A stretch of 64,000 nt of DNA from contig NC_043005.1 in NCBI RefSeq assembly GCF_006345805.1, forward strand, positions 54,870,001 through 54,934,000, in the 5' to 3' direction. The notes beneath the pieces are model-generated. The model searched no databases and was not told the origin of the DNA. It saw only the letters and a list, made by a program, of their open reading frames with translations. The DNA comes from Octopus sinensis (taxonomy: Eukaryota). A program made the position numbers and the translations under genes. This document shows, in pieces, positions 10,641-61,323 of the stretch; position 1 is the first letter of the stretch, and each line of letters begins with the position of its first letter.

Positions 10641-10729
10641 AAATGAGTTAATAAGATAATCATTTTTTTTATCATCTCATTCCATATACATGCATTACAC
10701 ACACACCCACCACACACAATATATATATA

Positions 10730-10761
<32 letters not shown>

Positions 10762-10898
10762 TACGGAGATGTACTCGCATAGCAAGTAATTTGATCTGAA
10801 GATCGTGTGTGCTGAAACGAAAAACAATTGCAGCGTGGAAGGTGTTTATAAGCATTTAAGAAAAACCACCAAAAGCCGTTCGATTCACTCCAAACATT

Positions 10899-11035
10899 TA
10901 AGTTTAATTTGTCAAAATATTTTCGTCGCTAAAATCCGCGACCTGTTCACTGACAAAGTCGTGCTGCAGCACGGACTTTGTCAGTGAACAGGTCGCGGAT
11001 TTTAGCGACGAAAATATTTTGACAAATTAAACTTA
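10899..11035. repeat. Near-perfect 137-bp palindrome without spacer
   Basis: Arms 10899-10966 and 10967-11035 are reverse complements except one extra G; centre ctg|cag. Confidence 0.95.
10977..11026 (+). ncRNA. Hammerhead-like motif with G3-C8 core variant (mirror copy on the minus strand in the left arm)
   Basis: tttgtca-GTGAACA-g-gtcgc-ggatttta-gcgac-GAAA-atat-TT-tgacaaa; 7-bp stem I, 5-bp stem II, palindromic AATATT stem III. Confidence 0.5.
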
Positions 11036-11779
11036 CAGCACCACCAGCACCACCAACAACAACAACAACAGCCATGAAAATCTTTGATTTCTCATCAAGA
11101 AATTGAACCTTTGCACTTTTACATGGAATCATTATTGTATTCTATAAACAGTTTAACAGCCAAATTAGTTTATATGATAAATACTTTTTGGCAAATAATG
11201 GGGTTGTTTGCCTTTTCGTTTGTTATTTATTTTGCTGTTGTTGTTGTTTTTTTGCAAATATTTCGTATAGGAAGTGGTTTTAATGTTAAGAAATGTGCTG
11301 TAACCTTACAAAATTTAAGTTGATGTAGAAATTAACAGCAATCAAACAACTTCTGTTTTTTTGTTAATATTTTTATGATTTATGTTAAATAATATGAGCT
11401 TTATAATTGATTTCTTTAGCTCTTCAATATATTGCCAAGTTCTCTGATACTGCAAAACATTACCGGAATGGAATTGAAAACAAATAAAAAGATTATTTCC
11501 AGTTTTCTCAGATACAAAACATTCTGGTAAGTTTTAAATTAGAAGAAATGTGAATTGGCTCAGAAAACTAAAAAGTAATTTAATGTCTACAAATTCTAAA
11601 TATTTTTTTTCTTCTTGTTAATTTTTTGCCTGATTAGTTGTTAATATTAAATATATCAGAAGTAATTAAGAAATATTGCGGTGGGGAGGAATGTCCAATC
11701 TATATTTCACACTTATAAATCAAAGGGAAACGGAATACATATATACATACATAAAAACACACACACATATATGTATGTA

Positions 11780-17960: not shown

Positions 17961-18009
17961 CAAGAACATACAAAACTATTAGTTTCACTTCAACATTTAA
18001 ATTTCATTT

Positions 18010-18060
18010 GTGTCAAAATATTTTCGTCGCTTTGAAACTGCGAACTGTTCACTGACAAAA
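18010..18060 (-). ncRNA. Second, non-palindromic copy of the G3-C8 hammerhead-like motif
   Basis: Reverse complement tgtca-GTGAACA-gt-tcgc-agtttcaaa-gcga-c-GAAA-atat-TT-tgaca; loop differs from 10977-11026 while stems persist. Confidence 0.45.
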
Positions 18061-18699
18061 CTTCGTGCTGCATCTGAAAAAACAACAGTTATTTCATGAT
18101 TATATGTGTTTATGTATGTATGTATGTATGTATGTATGTATGTATGTATGTATGTATATATGTATGCATGCATGTATGTATATATGTATGCATGCATGTA
18201 TGTATGTATGTATGTATGTATGTATGTATGTATGTATGTATGTATGTATGTATGTATGTATGTATGTATGTATGGGTGGATGGATGTATGCATGATTGTA
18301 TGTATGTGTAAATACGTATGCATATACACATATACGTATGTATGTATGCATCTAGGTACGTATGTATATATGTATGTAAGCATGTAGACATGTCTGCGTG
18401 AGTATATATGTGTATGTACATGTAAATGTATATTTATGTACTGACATGTGTGTGTTCAAGATGTATATATAACTGTTACTCCGTTGAAGGTTGTATATAT
18501 ATTTATGTTCTGAGCACACAATCTCAAACCAAGTTACTTGTTATGCAAGTACATCTTCGTAAATATAAAGATTATCTACGAAATGTTATATTGCTTTAAT
18601 CAAAATGAAAATAAAATTTCGTATTGACACTGACCAGCCTTCACATACATGTAGTATGTTTAATAATATACCTAACGCGGAAAGGCACACACACTGTAT

Positions 18700-19393
18700 T
18701 TTTGAATCTATGGGTTTCGTGTAATAGGAGTGGAGGATCTGCACTCTGTTGTTCACTGTCTCTAACCAAATTTCAGTATCAAGGACGGGGAGTCTATTGT
18801 TGGGGTTCCAAATGGGGTAATCTATAGTTACCTTGATACTTTGGTTGATGGAGTTAGCTACTTGCTGGATAGTTTCCATTATATTCCTATCAGTTTCTAC
18901 ATTACCGTTACTAGAGTTAGTCTTAACTAGGATGTGGACTATTCTGCTAAAAATTGCTGAAGTTTTCTGTCCCACCAGGTTATGAAGGGGCCGGCCACAT
19001 CTTCAGTTACACCGACACCAATCACTGCACCTTGAACCTGCATGTATAGTTTCTTGTTAAACTTTACTATGTAGTTCTTCAAGGTTTTTCCCACACAAGC
19101 CCCTAATGCATGTATAATCATTCCTTTCACCTGATTGTTGTTCTCAGAATCTTGGGTCGGTACGGTCCAGCCACTCCAATGTTCTGCGGTGCTTTTCTTC
19201 ACAGCTGAAGTGATGGTGGGTGGTCTTCCCATCTGAGACCTGGTGGGGCAGGATCTATCAAGGCCATGGTAGTCTAAATAGTCACTGTCGTAGCTTTGTG
19301 TAGGGAGAAGGTCCAGTTCCCTCATGTTGGCTTCACAGAACTCTACTTCACTCTCACAGATTATCTCAATGCATTTCTCCACAGTAAAATCTC
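18700..19393 (-). pseudogene. Penelope-like element reverse transcriptase relic
   Basis: KFNKKLYMQVQGAVIGVG..A..ITWWD and IQQVANSINQSIKVTIDYP..NNRLPVLDTEIW..ILHSYYTKP are typical of PLE RT palm/thumb; frameshifted, catalytic YxDD region apparently deleted. Confidence 0.75.
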
Positions 19394-26783: not shown

Positions 26784-26921
26784 GTCTATTCCTTTATTCA
26801 CAAGTGTTAAACTAACACCTGCTTGTTGTTCTTTCACCCATCTTTGTCTTTGTCTTTTGTTTTCTGTAGATTTGAACTATGTGTGTGTATGTGTGTGTGT
26901 GTATGTACATATATATAGTTC

Positions 26922-27075
26922 AAATCCACGGAATTTTAAAAAACATTTGGCCAACCATCTTTCTGCATTTAAATATATTCATAAACGTAATACTACAGGT
27001 CTTAGTAAACTAATTTGGCACCTCAAAGACTGTAACAATTTTCTTTAGAACGAAAAATTTTGTCACCATCTTTTC
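26922..27075 (+). pseudogene. Penelope-like GIY-YIG endonuclease fragment
   Basis: [33 protein letters not shown] fits the FK.R..NH..SF...T.LS..IW.LK pattern of PLE endonucleases. Confidence 0.65.
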
Positions 27076-32093: not shown

Positions 32094-34454
32094 CATCATC
32101 ATCATCATCATCATCGTTTAACGTCCGCTTTCCGCGCTAGCACGGGTTGGACGGTTCGACCGGGTCTGGGAAGCCAGGGGCCGCTCCAGGCTCCAGTCTG
32201 AATCTGGCAGAGTTTCTACGGCTGGATGCCCTTCCTAACGCCAACCACTCCGTGAGTGGATTGGGTGCTTTTTACGTGCCACCTGCACAGGGCCGGAGGG
32301 TCCGGCATCGTCACGATCGGTTCGAGCATTTTAACGTGTCAGCGGCACGGGGGCAACGAGGTCCGGGGTACTTTGGGGATCGGGGTACTTTGGGGATCCA
32401 GGGTACTTTGGGGATCCGGGTACTTAGAATGGGTAGGGGGTATGTGGAATTGCTGCAGAAAGCAGCCCGGGTCTTTGTAGTCACAGCATATCTCCAGAGA
32501 TCTCGGTCCTTCGCCATTGCCTCAGTGAGGCCCAATGCTCTGAGGTCATGCTTGACCACCTCATCCCATGTCTTCCTGGGTCTACCTCTCCCCCTGATAC
32601 CTTCAACTGTTTGGGAGTGGCACTTCTTCACACATCTCTCTTCATCCATCCGCAGCACATGACCATACCATCGCAAGCGTCGCTCTTGCACACCACATCT
32701 GATGCTTCTTATATCCAGCATTTCTCTCAGGATACTTACACTCTGTTTTGCGTGCACACTGACACTACACATCCAGCGGATCATGCTAGCTTCATTTCTT
32801 TCAAGTCTACGCATGTCTTCTGCAGTCACAGCCCATGTTTCATTACCGTGAAGCATGGCAGTTCGCACACATGCATCATACAATCTACCTTTTGCTCTGA
32901 GGGAGAGACCTTTTGTTGCCAGTAGGGGTAGGAGCTTTCTGAACTTTGCCCAGGCTATTCGTATTCTAGTGGTGATACTCTCTGTGCATCCACCTCCGCT
33001 ACTAACTTGGTCACCCAGGTAGCGGAAACTATCAACTACTTCTAGTTTCTCTCCCTGGAGTGTGATGGAATCTGTTTTCTGAGTGTCTGTTGTGTCTATT
33101 GTCCCTGTGCATCTGCCGCACATGAAAGCTATCTTATCTGTTAATTTCCCTTTAATGTTGCTGCACCTCTTATGTGTCCATAACTTACATTGGGTGCATC
33201 TTATGGAGTTTCTACCTGTACCTTTCCTACAGGTTGAGCAGGGCCACCTACCCGAGGGGATGTGTGCTGAGTACCTCTTGCTGCTTACTAATACTTTGGT
33301 CTTTGCTACATTTATTCTAAGGCCCTTTGATTCCAACCCTTGCTTCCACACCCGAAATTTCTCTTCTAGTTCCGGTAGTGATTCTGCTATGAGAGCTAGG
33401 TCATCGGCATAGAGGAGCTCCCAGGGGCATCCCGTTTTGAATTCCTCTGTTATTGCCTGAAGGACTATGATGAATAAAAGGGGACTGAGGGCTGAGCCCT
33501 GGTGCACACCTACTTCTACCCGGAATTCTTCACTATATTCGTTGCCAATCCTAACCTTGCTGACAGCCTCTCTGTATAGAGCCTGTACAGCCCTTATTAG
33601 CCATTCTTCAATCTCCAGTTTCCGCATCGACCACCAGATAAGGAAACGGGGAACCCTGTCAAAGGCTTTCTCCAAGTCTACAAAAGCTATGTAGAGGGGT
33701 TTATCTTTAGCTAGGTACTTCTCCTGCAGTTGTCGGACCAGGAATATAGCATCAGTGGTGCTTCTACCTGGTACAAAACCGAACTGCATTTCATCTAAAC
33801 AAATTCTCTCCCTAATGAGATTGGTTATGACCTTCTCTGAGACCTTCATCACCTGGTCCAACAGTTTGATACCTCTGTAGTTATTTCTATCTAGAGCATC
33901 ACCCTTACCCTTGTAGCAGTTGACTATGGTGCTGCTGCACCAGTCATTGGGTATGACTCCATTGTGAACTACCTGGTTTACAATGCGGGTGACTATGGCA
34001 TAGCCCACATAGCCCACATAGCCAGCTGTTTTAAGCATCTCAGCAGTGATTCCTGATAGGCCAGGGGCTTTGCCTGGTTTCATATCCTTAATTGCCTTAT
34101 CTACAAGGGAGCTGTCTATTCGGGTAGCTGGTCCCTCTATTGGGTCAACATTTGGCAGGCTCTCCTCCTCCCATTCATTCTCCTCATTCAGCAGTCTTTC
34201 ATAATGGCTTCTCCAAGCCTCTTTCTTTTCACTAGTAGTAAAAGCAAGTGCCCCATCATCCATGCGGACACATTTCTCTCCTATAACATCGCTATTTTCT
34301 CTGACACACTGTCTGGCAATCCGAAATACTTCAGCTCTTTGATCCTCGCGACGCTGGACATTGGCAAACTTCTTCTTTTCTGCTACATCTTTGGCAATGT
34401 ATACCTGCCGCCCAGCCTCCCTTTTGGCTATCTGGTACAGTTCCCTGCTGCCCC
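32092..34454 (-). mobile_element. RTE-clade LINE, 5'-truncated, with 3'UTR and (GAT)n tail
   Basis: Reading frame stays open upstream of 34263 to ~34454 (GSRELYQIAKREAGRQV..); no APE domain present; tail ttaaacgatgatgatg. Confidence 0.92.
32311..34263 (-). CDS. RTE-type reverse transcriptase (truncated ORF) with internal PHD-like zinc finger
   Basis: Motifs KAPG, NYRGIKLL, QFGF, FVDLEKAFDRV, GVHQGSALSPLLF, LLYADD, FRYLG, RLRWYGHV, RGRGRPRKTW; no internal stop over 650 aa. Confidence 0.9.
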   Translation of the reverse strand: MDDGALAFTTSEKKEAWRSHYERLLNEENEWEEESLPNVDPIEGPATRIDSSLVDKAIKDMKPGKAPGLSGITAEMLKTAGYVGYVGYAIVTRIVNQVVHNGVIPNDWCSSTIVNCYKGKGDALDRNNYRGIKLLDQVMKVSEKVITNLIRERICLDEMQFGFVPGRSTTDAIFLVRQLQEKYLAKDKPLYIAFVDLEKAFDRVPRFLIWWSMRKLEIEEWLIRAVQALYREAVSKVRIGNEYSEEFRVEVGVHQGSALSPLLFIIVLQAITEEFKTGCPWELLYADDLALIAESLPELEEKFRVWKQGLESKGLRINVAKTKVLVSSKRYSAHIPSGRWPCSTCRKGTGRNSIRCTQCKLWTHKRCSNIKGKLTDKIAFMCGRCTGTIDTTDTQKTDSITLQGEKLEVVDSFRYLGDQVSSGGGCTESITTRIRIAWAKFRKLLPLLATKGLSLRAKGRLYDACVRTAMLHGNETWAVTAEDMRRLERNEASMIRWMCSVSVHAKQSVSILREMLDIRSIRCGVQERRLRWYGHVLRMDEERCVKKCHSQTVEGIRGRGRPRKTWDEVVKHDLRALGLTEAMAKDRDLWRYAVTTKTRAAFCSNSTYPLPILSTRIPKVPWIPKVPRSPKYPGPRCPRAADTLKCSNRS

Positions 34455-35231
34455 CATGTGGTGAGTTTCTTTCAGTTTACATCAACTAAATCCACTCACA
34501 AGGCTTCGGTTGGCCTGAGGCTATAGAAGAAGACATTTGCCCATGGTGCCAGGTAGTGGGACTGAACTGGGAATCATGTGGTTGAGAAGCAAGCTTCTTA
34601 CCACACAGCCACAGCTGCACCTATAAATGTGTGTAAATAAATATATAAAATCATTAAAATGCTCTACTCCACCCTGCCCTGGAAGTCATCAGCTTCCAGA
34701 AAAACATCAACAGCCTTCATTTCCTTGGTTTTGGTATAATTAAGAATGGTAACTGCAGCGCATGCAGGGACGGGTTTATGCATGAGCTAATATGGGCCAT
34801 GACCAGGGCCCTACAGCATGGAGGGTTTCCAAGCATTTAGGACCCCCAACTATTGGAGTGGGGGTTCATTGACTCAGAGAACCCTAAAGCTTGGATTTAA
34901 AAACTTTTTGCTGATGGAATGAGGTAGTGCTGTGACAGGATAGTTCTCATCGCTCTCTTCTGTTTAGAGATTGCTGACGTGGGTACATGCCTCTTGACCC
35001 TACATGGCCTGTGAGCCCTGGATATGTTACTACTGCTGCCATTGCTGCTACCACCTTGTATGTCAGCATGTGAGCACCCTTCACCTTTGCTGCCATCGTC
35101 ACACTCCACCTCATGTTCCCAGCAGCCACTTTGTAAACAGAAATTAAGTTTGTACTTCAGCATTGTTGCAATCTAAAGACTGAAACAAGTAACAGAGATT
35201 AAATAGTTTGTAATTTTTGTTTTTAATCAAG

Positions 35232-54599: not shown

Positions 54600-55200
54600 C
54601 TTCAGCCGAGTAAAACAGGCATTGTAACACAACGTCTACCTTGAAATGTTGTTGTGCTTCCATGAATAAGGAAGTCTTTCTACAGTCATAGCTTTTTCCT
54701 GCAAGCTGCCAGACTTTGGAATTTTCTTCTATCTCATTGTTTCCTGCCTTCTTATGACCTGATCTCTTTCAAGTCTAAAGTAAAGTTATTCTATTATGTC
54801 TGGGGAAAGTCATTTTCATTTTGTGCCTTATAATTTAACACACTCACACCCATAAAATTTCCACCTATTTCTTATTTTTATTTTCCTAAAATTTTCATTG
54901 TGTCTTGCAACCTTTTCAAATGACTATTGAAAAGGTTGCAAGATGTAACAAAAATTTTAGGAAAATAAAAATAAGAAATAGGTGGAAATTTTACCATTGA
55001 GTGTGTTAAGGCACAAAAAGAAAATGACTCTCCCCAGACACAACAGAATATGCTTCAACACACAAACTCACATAAAGAATCTTGCAAACCAAATCCGAAA
55101 GCGAAATGTAAATTTATCCCTTTCATCTTAATTTGTCCTTCTTCATAGCCCATAATGCTAAGTGGCTTCTTGCCTTGTTTGGGACTTTCTAATAAAATAA
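54600..55200 (+). pseudogene. CR1/Jockey-group LINE 3' end, interrupted
   Basis: SFFLQAARLWNFLLSHCFLPSYDLISFKSKV, resuming after the insert as NLSLSS*, then an A-rich tail. Confidence 0.6.
54785..55107. mobile_element. Palindromic insertion (arms 54787-54919 and 54927-55050) carrying U3-A8 hammerhead-like motifs
   Basis: Diverged inverted repeat; putative TSD gtaaa at 54780-54784 and 55108-55112. Confidence 0.7.
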
Positions 55201-59834: not shown

Positions 59835-60046
59835 TCATCATCATTATTCGACCGTGGTCAAGACAATGGAATTTACCATGCTACGCCAGACTTCACAGTC
59901 CATCATGGCATTACGGAGGTCCTGTTGCTGGATGCCTGTATCCCTGGAGATTACATCAGGGTAGGAGAGTGTGCGCCCTCTGGTATTGCAAGTAGATGGC
60001 TTCCAGAGGAGAAGAGTAGAAATTACTTCTTTTTCAGCTCTACAAC
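59835..60046 (-). mobile_element. 3' end of a third RTE/RTEX-type LINE
   Basis: CCRAEKEVISTLLLWKPSTCNTRGRTLSYPDVISRDTGIQQQDLRNAMMDCEVWRSMVNSIVLTTVE* followed directly by (TGA)n. Confidence 0.75.
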
Positions 60047-60141
60047 ACTTTTACTTTTTACTTTTTACAGACATGTATTTATATATTCCTCGAAAAGGAA
60101 TATATAAATACATGTCTGTAAAAAGTAAAAAGTAAAAGTGT
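60045..60141. repeat. Perfect inverted repeat, 46-bp arms, 5-nt loop
   Basis: 60045-60090 is the exact reverse complement of 60096-60141; loop cgaaa. Confidence 0.95.
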
Positions 60142-61323
60142 CAAAAGGAAGAGTAAGTACAGTTAGGCAGCTTTTTAATCGCTACAAATGTATGTATGTA
60201 TGCATGTATACATGCAATAGGTTTCTTTTAGTTCCTGTCAACCAAATCCACTTACAAGGCTTTGGCCAGCCTAGGGCTGTAATAAAAAACACTTGTTCAA
60301 GATGTCATGCAGAACCTAAAACCCGTCTTACCATATAGCTACACCCTGCAAATGTTGTTCTATATTTTGGGAGGAGGTACAGTTTATGAAGTCAGCTCCA
60401 GTACTCGACTGGTACTTTATGGGTTTTTTTTTCTATTCTCAAAGGATGAACGATAACAATGATCTTCTCAGCAGGATTTGAATGCAGAACAGGAGCCACT
60501 CTACTGATTCCACCAATCTGCACTCCACTTAGTGTTTATAATTGTTTAAAATTATTTTGATAAACTAGATCAACTATCAGCAATGAGTTGACCGAGTGTC
60601 AACTTGGTTCATATACATTGACAGTGTTTCTATCACAATGATGTATAAGAACAGCAGTTAATAACAGAAGTGGTAGCAGAGTGTTAATGAGAGTAGATGA
60701 CCACTAATCCATTCTTCATTGTTGTTTACAAGTGATTATTTCCTTTTTAATTATTGTCCTCCTGTGTTATCCCTTATTCTAATTTCTAACTTTGACACCA
60801 GGTCACACATATTAATGGAGGATATAGTAAATGGAGGATATAGTAAATTTAATCAACTCCAGTACTTTATTTTGTCTATCTCAGAAGGATAAATGGTAGG
60901 ATTTGAATTCAAAATGTAAGTACATTAACTATAGACCATACAGTATTTTGTCCTAACATTTTATCAATTCTACCAATCCAGTACTTTGTTACTGTTTATT
61001 ATCATCATCCTTATCATCATCATCAGCATCATCATCGTCGTCATCATCATTGTTGTCATCATCGTCGTTGTCATCATCATTTTAATGTCCACTTTTCCAT
61101 GCTTGCATGGGTTGAATGGAATTTTATTCAGGGGGATTTTTTATAGCTGGATGCGCTTCCCCTCACCAACCTTCACCTCTTTTCAAGCAAGGTAATATAT
61201 ACCCTTATCTGTATAGGAATGATATATACAGACATGTTTCCATGGAAGACTGGGAAAGAAGGATAGTACTTGCATGTCAGAGACGTTCCTTTTCAACAAT
61301 CACATGATGTCAGGGAAGTTTCT

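Follow-up and report, generated by a model that had tools for sequence, protein, structure and literature searches.

Results

A head-to-head palindrome of two element ends

The window analysed here, a 64,000-nucleotide stretch of the Octopus sinensis genome, contains a palindrome in which two 5' ends of one repeat family, hereafter F1, meet head to head. The features of this locus and of a second, diverged copy in the window are the following.

10696..10762, no strand: (CA)n/(TA)n microsatellite at the 3' end of the element, the typical target, a pattern seen family-wide
10760..10968, minus strand: left arm, a solo Penelope-like pLTR end of 209 bp with the hammerhead, the ORF start codons and a tail of about 58 nt, followed by (TA)n
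10899..11035, no strand: head-to-head palindrome of two F1 pLTR 5' ends with a common central TGCA and one unpaired base at 10973
10908..10957, minus strand: mirror hammerhead motif, G3 at 10950, predicted cut after 10915
10965..11035, plus strand: right arm, a 71-nt pLTR piece with 100% identity to the young subfamily and a non-standard end before a (CAN)n microsatellite
10977..11026, plus strand: minimal type I hammerhead motif, G3 at 10984, C8 at 10989, extra G9a at 10991
17965..18277, minus strand: older-subfamily pLTR copy with an upstream (TACA)n part, 81% identical to the F1 element at locus L031

Each of the two 62-bp segments, 10899-10960 and 10974-11035, is the exact reverse complement of the other. 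Between them, the 13-nt centre is palindromic about TGCA (10965-10968) save for one unpaired G (10973), which corresponds to a left arm one base short relative to other family copies. The 137-bp palindrome described as spacerless in the original prediction is effectively so and near-perfect, but the single unpaired base near the centre means that it is not strictly perfect. Nor is the left arm a piece confined to the palindrome: it extends about 140 bp beyond it, to the (TA)n at about 10760, and is 94% identical to the L031 element, with mostly 1-2 nt indels. The flanks of the palindrome are not mirror images of each other. Among the contigs of four DNA or unlabelled runs that fall on 10925-11400, none runs across the junction and repeat stretches are skipped; the right-flank contig extends further left in two of the four runs than in the other two.

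The hammerhead motif and its folding

The proposed hammerhead parse was recovered on both strands as a plus-strand motif and its minus-strand mirror. In the plus-strand motif, stem I pairs 10977-10983 with 11020-11026 (7 bp), the core G3 U4 G5 A6 A7 C8 A9 occupies 10984-10990, and stem II (10992-11009 as a whole) pairs 10992-10996 with 11005-11009 and is followed by GAAA at 11010-11013. Stem III is the palindromic AATATT; U17 lies at 11019, and cleavage is predicted 3' of it. The canonical core is C3 U4 G5 A6 N7 G8 A9 (Perreault 2011, PMC3088659, in its accessible text), of which the F1 motif has neither C3 nor G8. The 3-8 pair is of the Watson-Crick type, G-C in F1 and C-G in the sister family F2 and the outgroups described below. 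The motif further shares with the minimal type I hammerheads of Penelope-like elements (PLEs) the G10.1-C11.1 pair, an extra base at 9a, a palindromic minimal stem III, A15.1-U16.1 and H17 (here U17).

In the monomer, stems I and II form with mean pair probabilities of 0.94 and 1.0, and the ribozyme fold has an energy of -14.1 kcal/mol. The hairpin of the entire palindrome reaches -109.9 kcal/mol, in agreement with the expectation that it outcompetes the ribozyme fold, and within it the pairing probability of the hammerhead stems is near zero. According to the folding model, the ribozyme fold would be abolished inside a palindrome transcript. An Rfam scan of the window contained no hammerhead among the matches listed (150 of 193), and neither did the 136 rows obtained for F2 and outgroup loci with a canonical core, the scans returning solely microsatellite and hairpin miRNA-model noise. 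Because these canonical-core controls also scored nothing, the scans are uninformative.

The hammerhead of the second copy, at about 18007-18059, keeps G3-C8, with T in place of G10.1 and a 2-nt insertion in stem I. An earlier description of this region (18010-18060) as an independent copy that keeps core and stems is accurate for the core but fails for the stems and also for independence: the copy is an older decayed paralogue and adds no independent evidence. Just upstream of this pLTR, a related PLE has left a decayed RT fragment (18433-19391, minus strand), which is 51% identical to the F2-type protein and 44% to that of F1.

F1 is a Penelope-like element

A 70-nt query from the right arm retrieved 704 candidates in the 2.7-Gb genome, and 45 of 54 among the matches listed were 100% identical. 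A protein annotated in Octopus vulgaris has matches of up to 99% in this genome, consistent with an octopus host. Most F1 copies measure about 150-210 bp and end at (TA)n; in several, the end of a GIY-YIG ORF lies about 1 kb upstream, and one has a long ORF downstream. The near-complete element at L031 carries the motif in both pLTRs, 4.36 kb apart, around an RT-EN ORF with one frameshift, and its 659-bp direct repeat has the motif at either end. At L032 there is a 793-aa open RT-EN frame, and the motif is found at the 3' end of L032 and L033. The ORF contains the motifs YPSID, GGAIG, YVDD and GVY..YIG, and the linker before GIY-YIG reads CQSNCAVC (CX3CX2C), in keeping with the CX2-5CxxC pattern of Nematis/Neptune elements. 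The order pLTR-ORF(RT, CxxxCxxC linker, GIY-YIG)-pLTR is that of EN+ PLEs, as are a pLTR that includes the ORF start, the partial tandem or inverted layout and the optional tail. When 18 aligned homologues were compared with Pfam, RVT_1 was detected in 6/18 and GIY-YIG in 4/18; F1's own ORFs had no RT or GIY-YIG match in Pfam at E 0.1, and a PDB comparison yielded weak RT matches only. By these sequence hallmarks F1 is an EN+ PLE with a linker of the Nematis/Neptune type.

At L057 and L062, F1 pLTR units of about 172-184 bp are arranged in tandem with G3-C8 in each, a retrozyme-like layout in which cis dimers are possible in principle.

Pairs of cores in divergent orientation, separated by 10-40 nt, occur 945 times in the genome and 0 times in the control, and 22 of the first 100 core matches belong to such head-to-head pairs. 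The junctions differ from case to case, with TGCA homology often used; by eye, the arms are of the same subfamily, and in many pairs the arms have diverged and the junction is distinct. Two studies (PMC3846280, PMC8557442) describe inverted pLTRs of PLEs that meet head to head at a palindromic junction, and a third (PMC4209133) describes hammerhead pairs on opposite strands. The palindrome is therefore ordinary PLE biology and nothing new in itself. What had been taken for a two-stranded ribozyme design is a PLE pLTR with thousands of copies, for which head-to-head insertion is routine.

The G3-C8 core is a family-wide, derived state

The G3-C8 core pattern yielded 6,232 matches in the octopus's own genome compared to 1 in the reversed control, so that the hammerhead motif is far above chance. 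A pattern with neither G3 nor C8 produced 29 matches, two of which are C3-G8, both with flanks unlike F1; a separate search found one older-subfamily F1 copy, L094, that reads C3-G8. In a core-unbiased sample (94 copies from 83 loci, anchored on the ORF start outside the hammerhead), the hammerhead was covered in 76 copies, with G3-C8 in 64/76 and C3-G8 in 0/76; the remaining copies show scattered single changes or gaps at the hammerhead. U17 is present in 73/74 F1 copies that have a letter at that position. The old and young F1 subfamilies differ in loop II and in the flanks, with G3-C8 fixed in both. Subfamily-diagnostic columns amount to 1/42 in the core and stems, where a wobble is kept, versus 11/71 outside (p=0.024, rising to 0.11 if loop II is counted conservatively).

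A search for the canonical core (49 matches, 16 in the control) brought to light family F2, for which a pattern with A9 required gave 1,098 matches and 0 in the control. The F2 core is C3-G8 in 26/30 loci. In F2 the motif follows an ORF with 55% identity to that of F1, and the homology between the F1 and F2 pLTRs 3' of the motif scored above 500/500 shuffles. In an alignment of 44 copies from both families, 94.5% of the cells pair, and 5 of the 10 named pairs differ on both sides, namely 3-8, two stem I pairs, one stem II pair and 15.2-16.2. The 3-8 pair is CG in 27 copies and GC in 10, the stem II pair is AU in 29 and GC in 12, and 15.2-16.2 is GC in 18, AU in 14 and GU in 10; these counts reflect about three lineage-level events, not 44. 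The rows were picked with a pattern in which some core and stem II positions are preset, which partly accounts for the invariant columns.

Among 77 related metagenome loci, a scan that permitted any Watson-Crick 3-8 pair detected 11 hammerhead-like motifs, all 11 with C3-G8. Because the sister family F2 and all 11 outgroup motifs are C3-G8, the G3-C8 state is derived; moreover, because F2 and the PLE relatives keep C3-G8 with compensatory changes in stems I-III, it is a true natural swap. The original prediction had called for genomic copies to be collected and tested for covariation, and its central proposal, a natural compensatory G3-C8 variant that escapes CUGANGA searches, is backed by the sister-family covariation. 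The motif is very probably a true hammerhead homologue with a compensatory swap, although the swap is a single lineage-level event.

The extra G at 9a is common to F1, F2 and four C3-G8 outgroup loci. F2 has mostly C17, in contrast to U17 in F1, and C17 has been suggested to be unfavourable with G3 (data not shown in the accessible text of PMC3884650). Avoidance by U17 of a possible G3-C17 decoy pair would fit the G3-C8 core, a weak argument because U17 is common in PLE hammerheads.

In the youngest F2 lineage, A9 is replaced by C in 82 of the first 100 of 3,110 matches and in 35/38 motifs adjoining the best F2 ORFs (L126-L154 among the loci). That this lineage spread with A9C means that amplification in the clade does not depend on an intact core. 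An apparently damaged core is thus tolerated, although an A9U change has been reported in functional natural ribozymes (PMC10085705). The A9C core of F2 is a second non-canonical core in this PLE clade.

Insertion boundaries

None of the copies in the unbiased sample begins at the predicted cut (0/94), which argues that insertion uses uncut RNA. Alignments start within 4 nt of the unit start in 66/94 copies, and solo copies begin about 22 nt upstream of the core. The base before the AGAT boundary is G in 28/38 unlinked copies (rows that include a few tandem near-duplicates) and C or T in 11/11 linked, that is templated, copies. At the position preceding the extra G the copies have no base in common (T 12, A 8, C 7, G 1). 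The 3' ends of F1 are bimodal, with two sites about 58 nt apart that account for 39/94 and 52/94 copies. Four runs presumed to be RNA have contigs that cover the unit and the ORF. Such contigs are uninformative about where transcripts start or end, their strand and their level, and were given no weight as evidence; they list no splice joint at the AG.

By analogy with cap copying in LINEs, the simplest reading of the non-templated G is a capped transcript that would start at the AGAT boundary. The sequence upstream of the F1 5' boundary (e.g. L031:2020-2045) resembles an initiator and also a branch point with a 3' splice site; the lack of a common base in front of the extra G led us to rank a splice-acceptor reading below the cap reading.

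Discussion

The results fit a simple model in which the palindrome is almost certainly a PLE fold-back insertion. Under this model, the transcription start would be the A of an initiator-like sequence (TCAGA/TTAGA) that lies about 22 nt 5' of G3, and reverse transcription would start internally, at one of two ORF-start sites about 58 nt apart, and proceed to the cap. The expected products are solo copies of 150-210 bp with a non-templated 5' G at (TA)n targets. Some events would include either fold-back of the cDNA end or a second priming on the other strand; by either route, two 5' ends would be joined via short homologies such as TGCA to produce a palindrome. Cleavage, if any, would take place on tandem or read-through transcripts or serve RNA-level control rather than form an insertion step, and would require either a dimer through AATATT (in tandem elements or in arrays of about 180-bp units such as those at L057 and L062) or the element's protein. 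At the present locus, a read-through transcript would fold into a long hairpin instead of a ribozyme.

Several other origins of the palindrome have to be weighed against the fold-back insertion. A fold-back artefact of reads or assembly might be suspected from the identity of the arms over 62 bp, from several 1-2 nt indels in the left arm beyond them that resemble long-read errors, and from the exact junction being unbridged by short-read contigs. However, the flanks show no mirror symmetry, the fold sits at the element 5' end as it does in the other palindromes of the genome, many of which have diverged arms and distinct junctions, and head-to-head pLTR palindromes are already described in PLEs (PMC3846280, accessible sections), all of which makes an artefact very improbable. 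Hardly more credible is a selected bidirectional device that provides a ribozyme on each strand and a competing dsRNA hairpin feeding ADAR or small-RNA pathways. The hairpin is indeed very stable and some of the 945 palindromes may give dsRNA, but the right arm is identical to hundreds of young copies across its length, the junctions vary between loci, no host gene or conservation is seen at the locus, and the ribozyme stems hardly pair within the palindrome; the suggestion that this locus is an ADAR or small-RNA substrate found no support in the present analysis. The short inverted-repeat structure and the many copies are also reminiscent of a MITE or another TIR DNA transposon with a hammerhead resemblance by chance. 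The arms, however, are unequal and variable in length, most copies are single-armed, the unit resides in the pLTRs of RT-GIY-YIG elements, and the sister family has a canonical CUGANGA core at the homologous position; the pLTR-RT-GIY-YIG context, the F2 core and the covariation refute the transposon reading, to which we assign a negligible probability.

Whether the swapped hammerhead cuts is a separate question from the origin of the palindrome. In the hammerhead of the Anolis PAc element, C3G and G8C each abolish cleavage and the double mutant partly restores it; cleavage requires the protein, catalytic mutants insert normally in vitro such that uncut RNA is used for insertion, and there are two internal RT start sites (PMC11167929). 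Activity of the F1 motif is plausible because its two transversions restore the 3-8 pair, the rest of the core is fixed, and there is this precedent of partial rescue. Even canonical minimal hammerheads have low activity (PMC4209133, accessible text), and the 9a base of F1, G, is outside the published consensus H. From sequence and analogy, detectable cleavage as a dimer or with the element's protein seems fairly likely. We are equally confident in the combined reading, in which the locus is a head-to-head pLTR palindrome and the G3-C8 swap of its family probably preserves the 3-8 pair and would permit self-cleavage after UUU only weakly and with the help of a dimer or protein.

Conversely, F1 might carry a hammerhead descendant without useful cleavage, its fold kept as a structural signal (for protein binding, or for 5'-end or translation control) or hitch-hiking on successful masters. 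Such a relic would be compatible with insertions from uncut RNA, with the normal insertion of catalytic mutants in vitro (PMC11167929) and with the A9C sister lineage having reached about 2,500 copies (an extrapolation of the 82% among the first 100 matches to all 3,110). Against it, both core substitutions hit the 3-8 tertiary pair and restore it, U4, G5, A6, A9 and GAAA are fixed, and the 3-8 pair belongs to the active fold and is unneeded for stems I-III. We consider a relic rather unlikely. Only tentatively can we propose the most far-reaching version of the weak-cleavage reading, that the F1 hammerhead is active, under selection and the first natural one with G3-C8, and belongs to an octopus PLE clade with three cores (C3-G8-A9, G3-C8-A9 and C3-G8-C9, each lineage with at least a thousand copies) amplified from apparently uncut RNA. 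If this is true, the clade is a natural experiment, PLE hammerheads would be tuned-down or protein-switched regulators as opposed to unit-length processors, and G3-C8 with U17 would be a co-adapted attenuated core.

Comparison with known systems places the F1 motif close to the PLE minimal type I hammerheads (PMC4209133, in its accessible parts), which it resembles in the pLTR location, the type I fold, the extra base between 9 and 10.1, the G10.1-C11.1 pair, the palindromic 15.2-16.2 with loop 3, the mostly solo copies and the opposite-strand pairs. The differences are G rather than H at 9a, a stem I of 7 bp and the 3-8 pair itself, for which the accessible text of that study reports only C3-G8 and U3-A8, with no G3-C8 row in supplementary Fig. 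S3. The natural U3-A8 core variant (Perreault 2011, PMC3088659; Cervera and de la Pena 2014, PMC4209133; available text of both) is, like F1, a compensatory 3-8 change; however, U3-A8 takes two transitions via a wobble, whereas G3-C8 takes two transversions via a C-C or G-G mismatch. The Anolis PAc C3G/G8C double mutant (Frangieh 2024, PMC11167929) has the same bases as F1, also in a PLE hammerhead, and partial activity, and PAc shares with F1 the two RT start sites that give the tail and the use of uncut RNA for insertion. The mutant, however, is laboratory-made and of the Poseidon clade, whereas in F1 G3-C8 is the wild type. In the accessible portions of the descriptions of Nematis/Neptune EN+ PLEs (Craig 2021, PMC8557442; Arkhipova 2013, PMC3846280), RT is followed by a C-terminal GIY-YIG with a CX2-5CxxC linker, as in F1, and partial tandems, a head-to-head copy with a palindromic junction, an optional tail and (TA)n targets are likewise shared. 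The tail is about 58 nt in F1 compared to 30-40 in these elements, RT motif B is GGAIG as opposed to GLAMG, and the EN spacing of F1 is, by eye, nearer to the Nematis than to the Neptune rows.

In the literature searched, we found no natural G3-C8 hammerhead, although the variant set of Lunse 2017, Repbase or Dfam could already include this family or such a core. As the wild-type state of thousands of copies, G3-C8 is a new natural variant for which we found no published report; otherwise, we found it reported only as a laboratory rescue mutant. If the present reading is true, natural covariation at the hammerhead 3-8 pair would be completed, with G-C now added to C-G and U-A. The family also shows that CUGANGA-based surveys overlook whole families with thousands of copies. 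Three close, successful families with different cores offer a direct test of the role of PLE hammerheads. Furthermore, the non-templated 5' G together with the two 3' end sites provides genome-scale support for internal RT initiation on uncut, probably capped RNA.

Additional repeats

Elsewhere in the window, a 721-aa open LINE reverse-transcriptase frame (32311-34476, minus strand), which we take to be RTE-like, was detected. A short reading frame at about 26900-27048 on the plus strand ends in a segment with resemblance to a Naiad-type GIY-YIG remnant. Two AT-rich inverted repeats (60036-60156 and 54862-54984) have scores to Rfam miRNA hairpin models below the gathering thresholds.

At L015-L017, three copies about 6.2 kb apart each place an F1 solo unit beside an intron-free frame, possibly a captured or duplicated host gene; we assume the frame to be dCMP-deaminase-like. 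The F2 ORFs in L126 and L127 have a long Asn-rich insertion ahead of RT, and a comparable insertion is described for rotifer Penelope families (PMC3846280, accessible text). A third repeat family, whose hammerhead-like motif has the canonical core, is represented at L068, L072, L079, L082, L083, L089 and L093, with G at 9a in most copies and, at L082, a GIY-YIG-like match upstream. Finally, two U3-A8 minimal hammerheads with a CGCG palindromic stem III lie 364 bp apart at L152:4254-4660.
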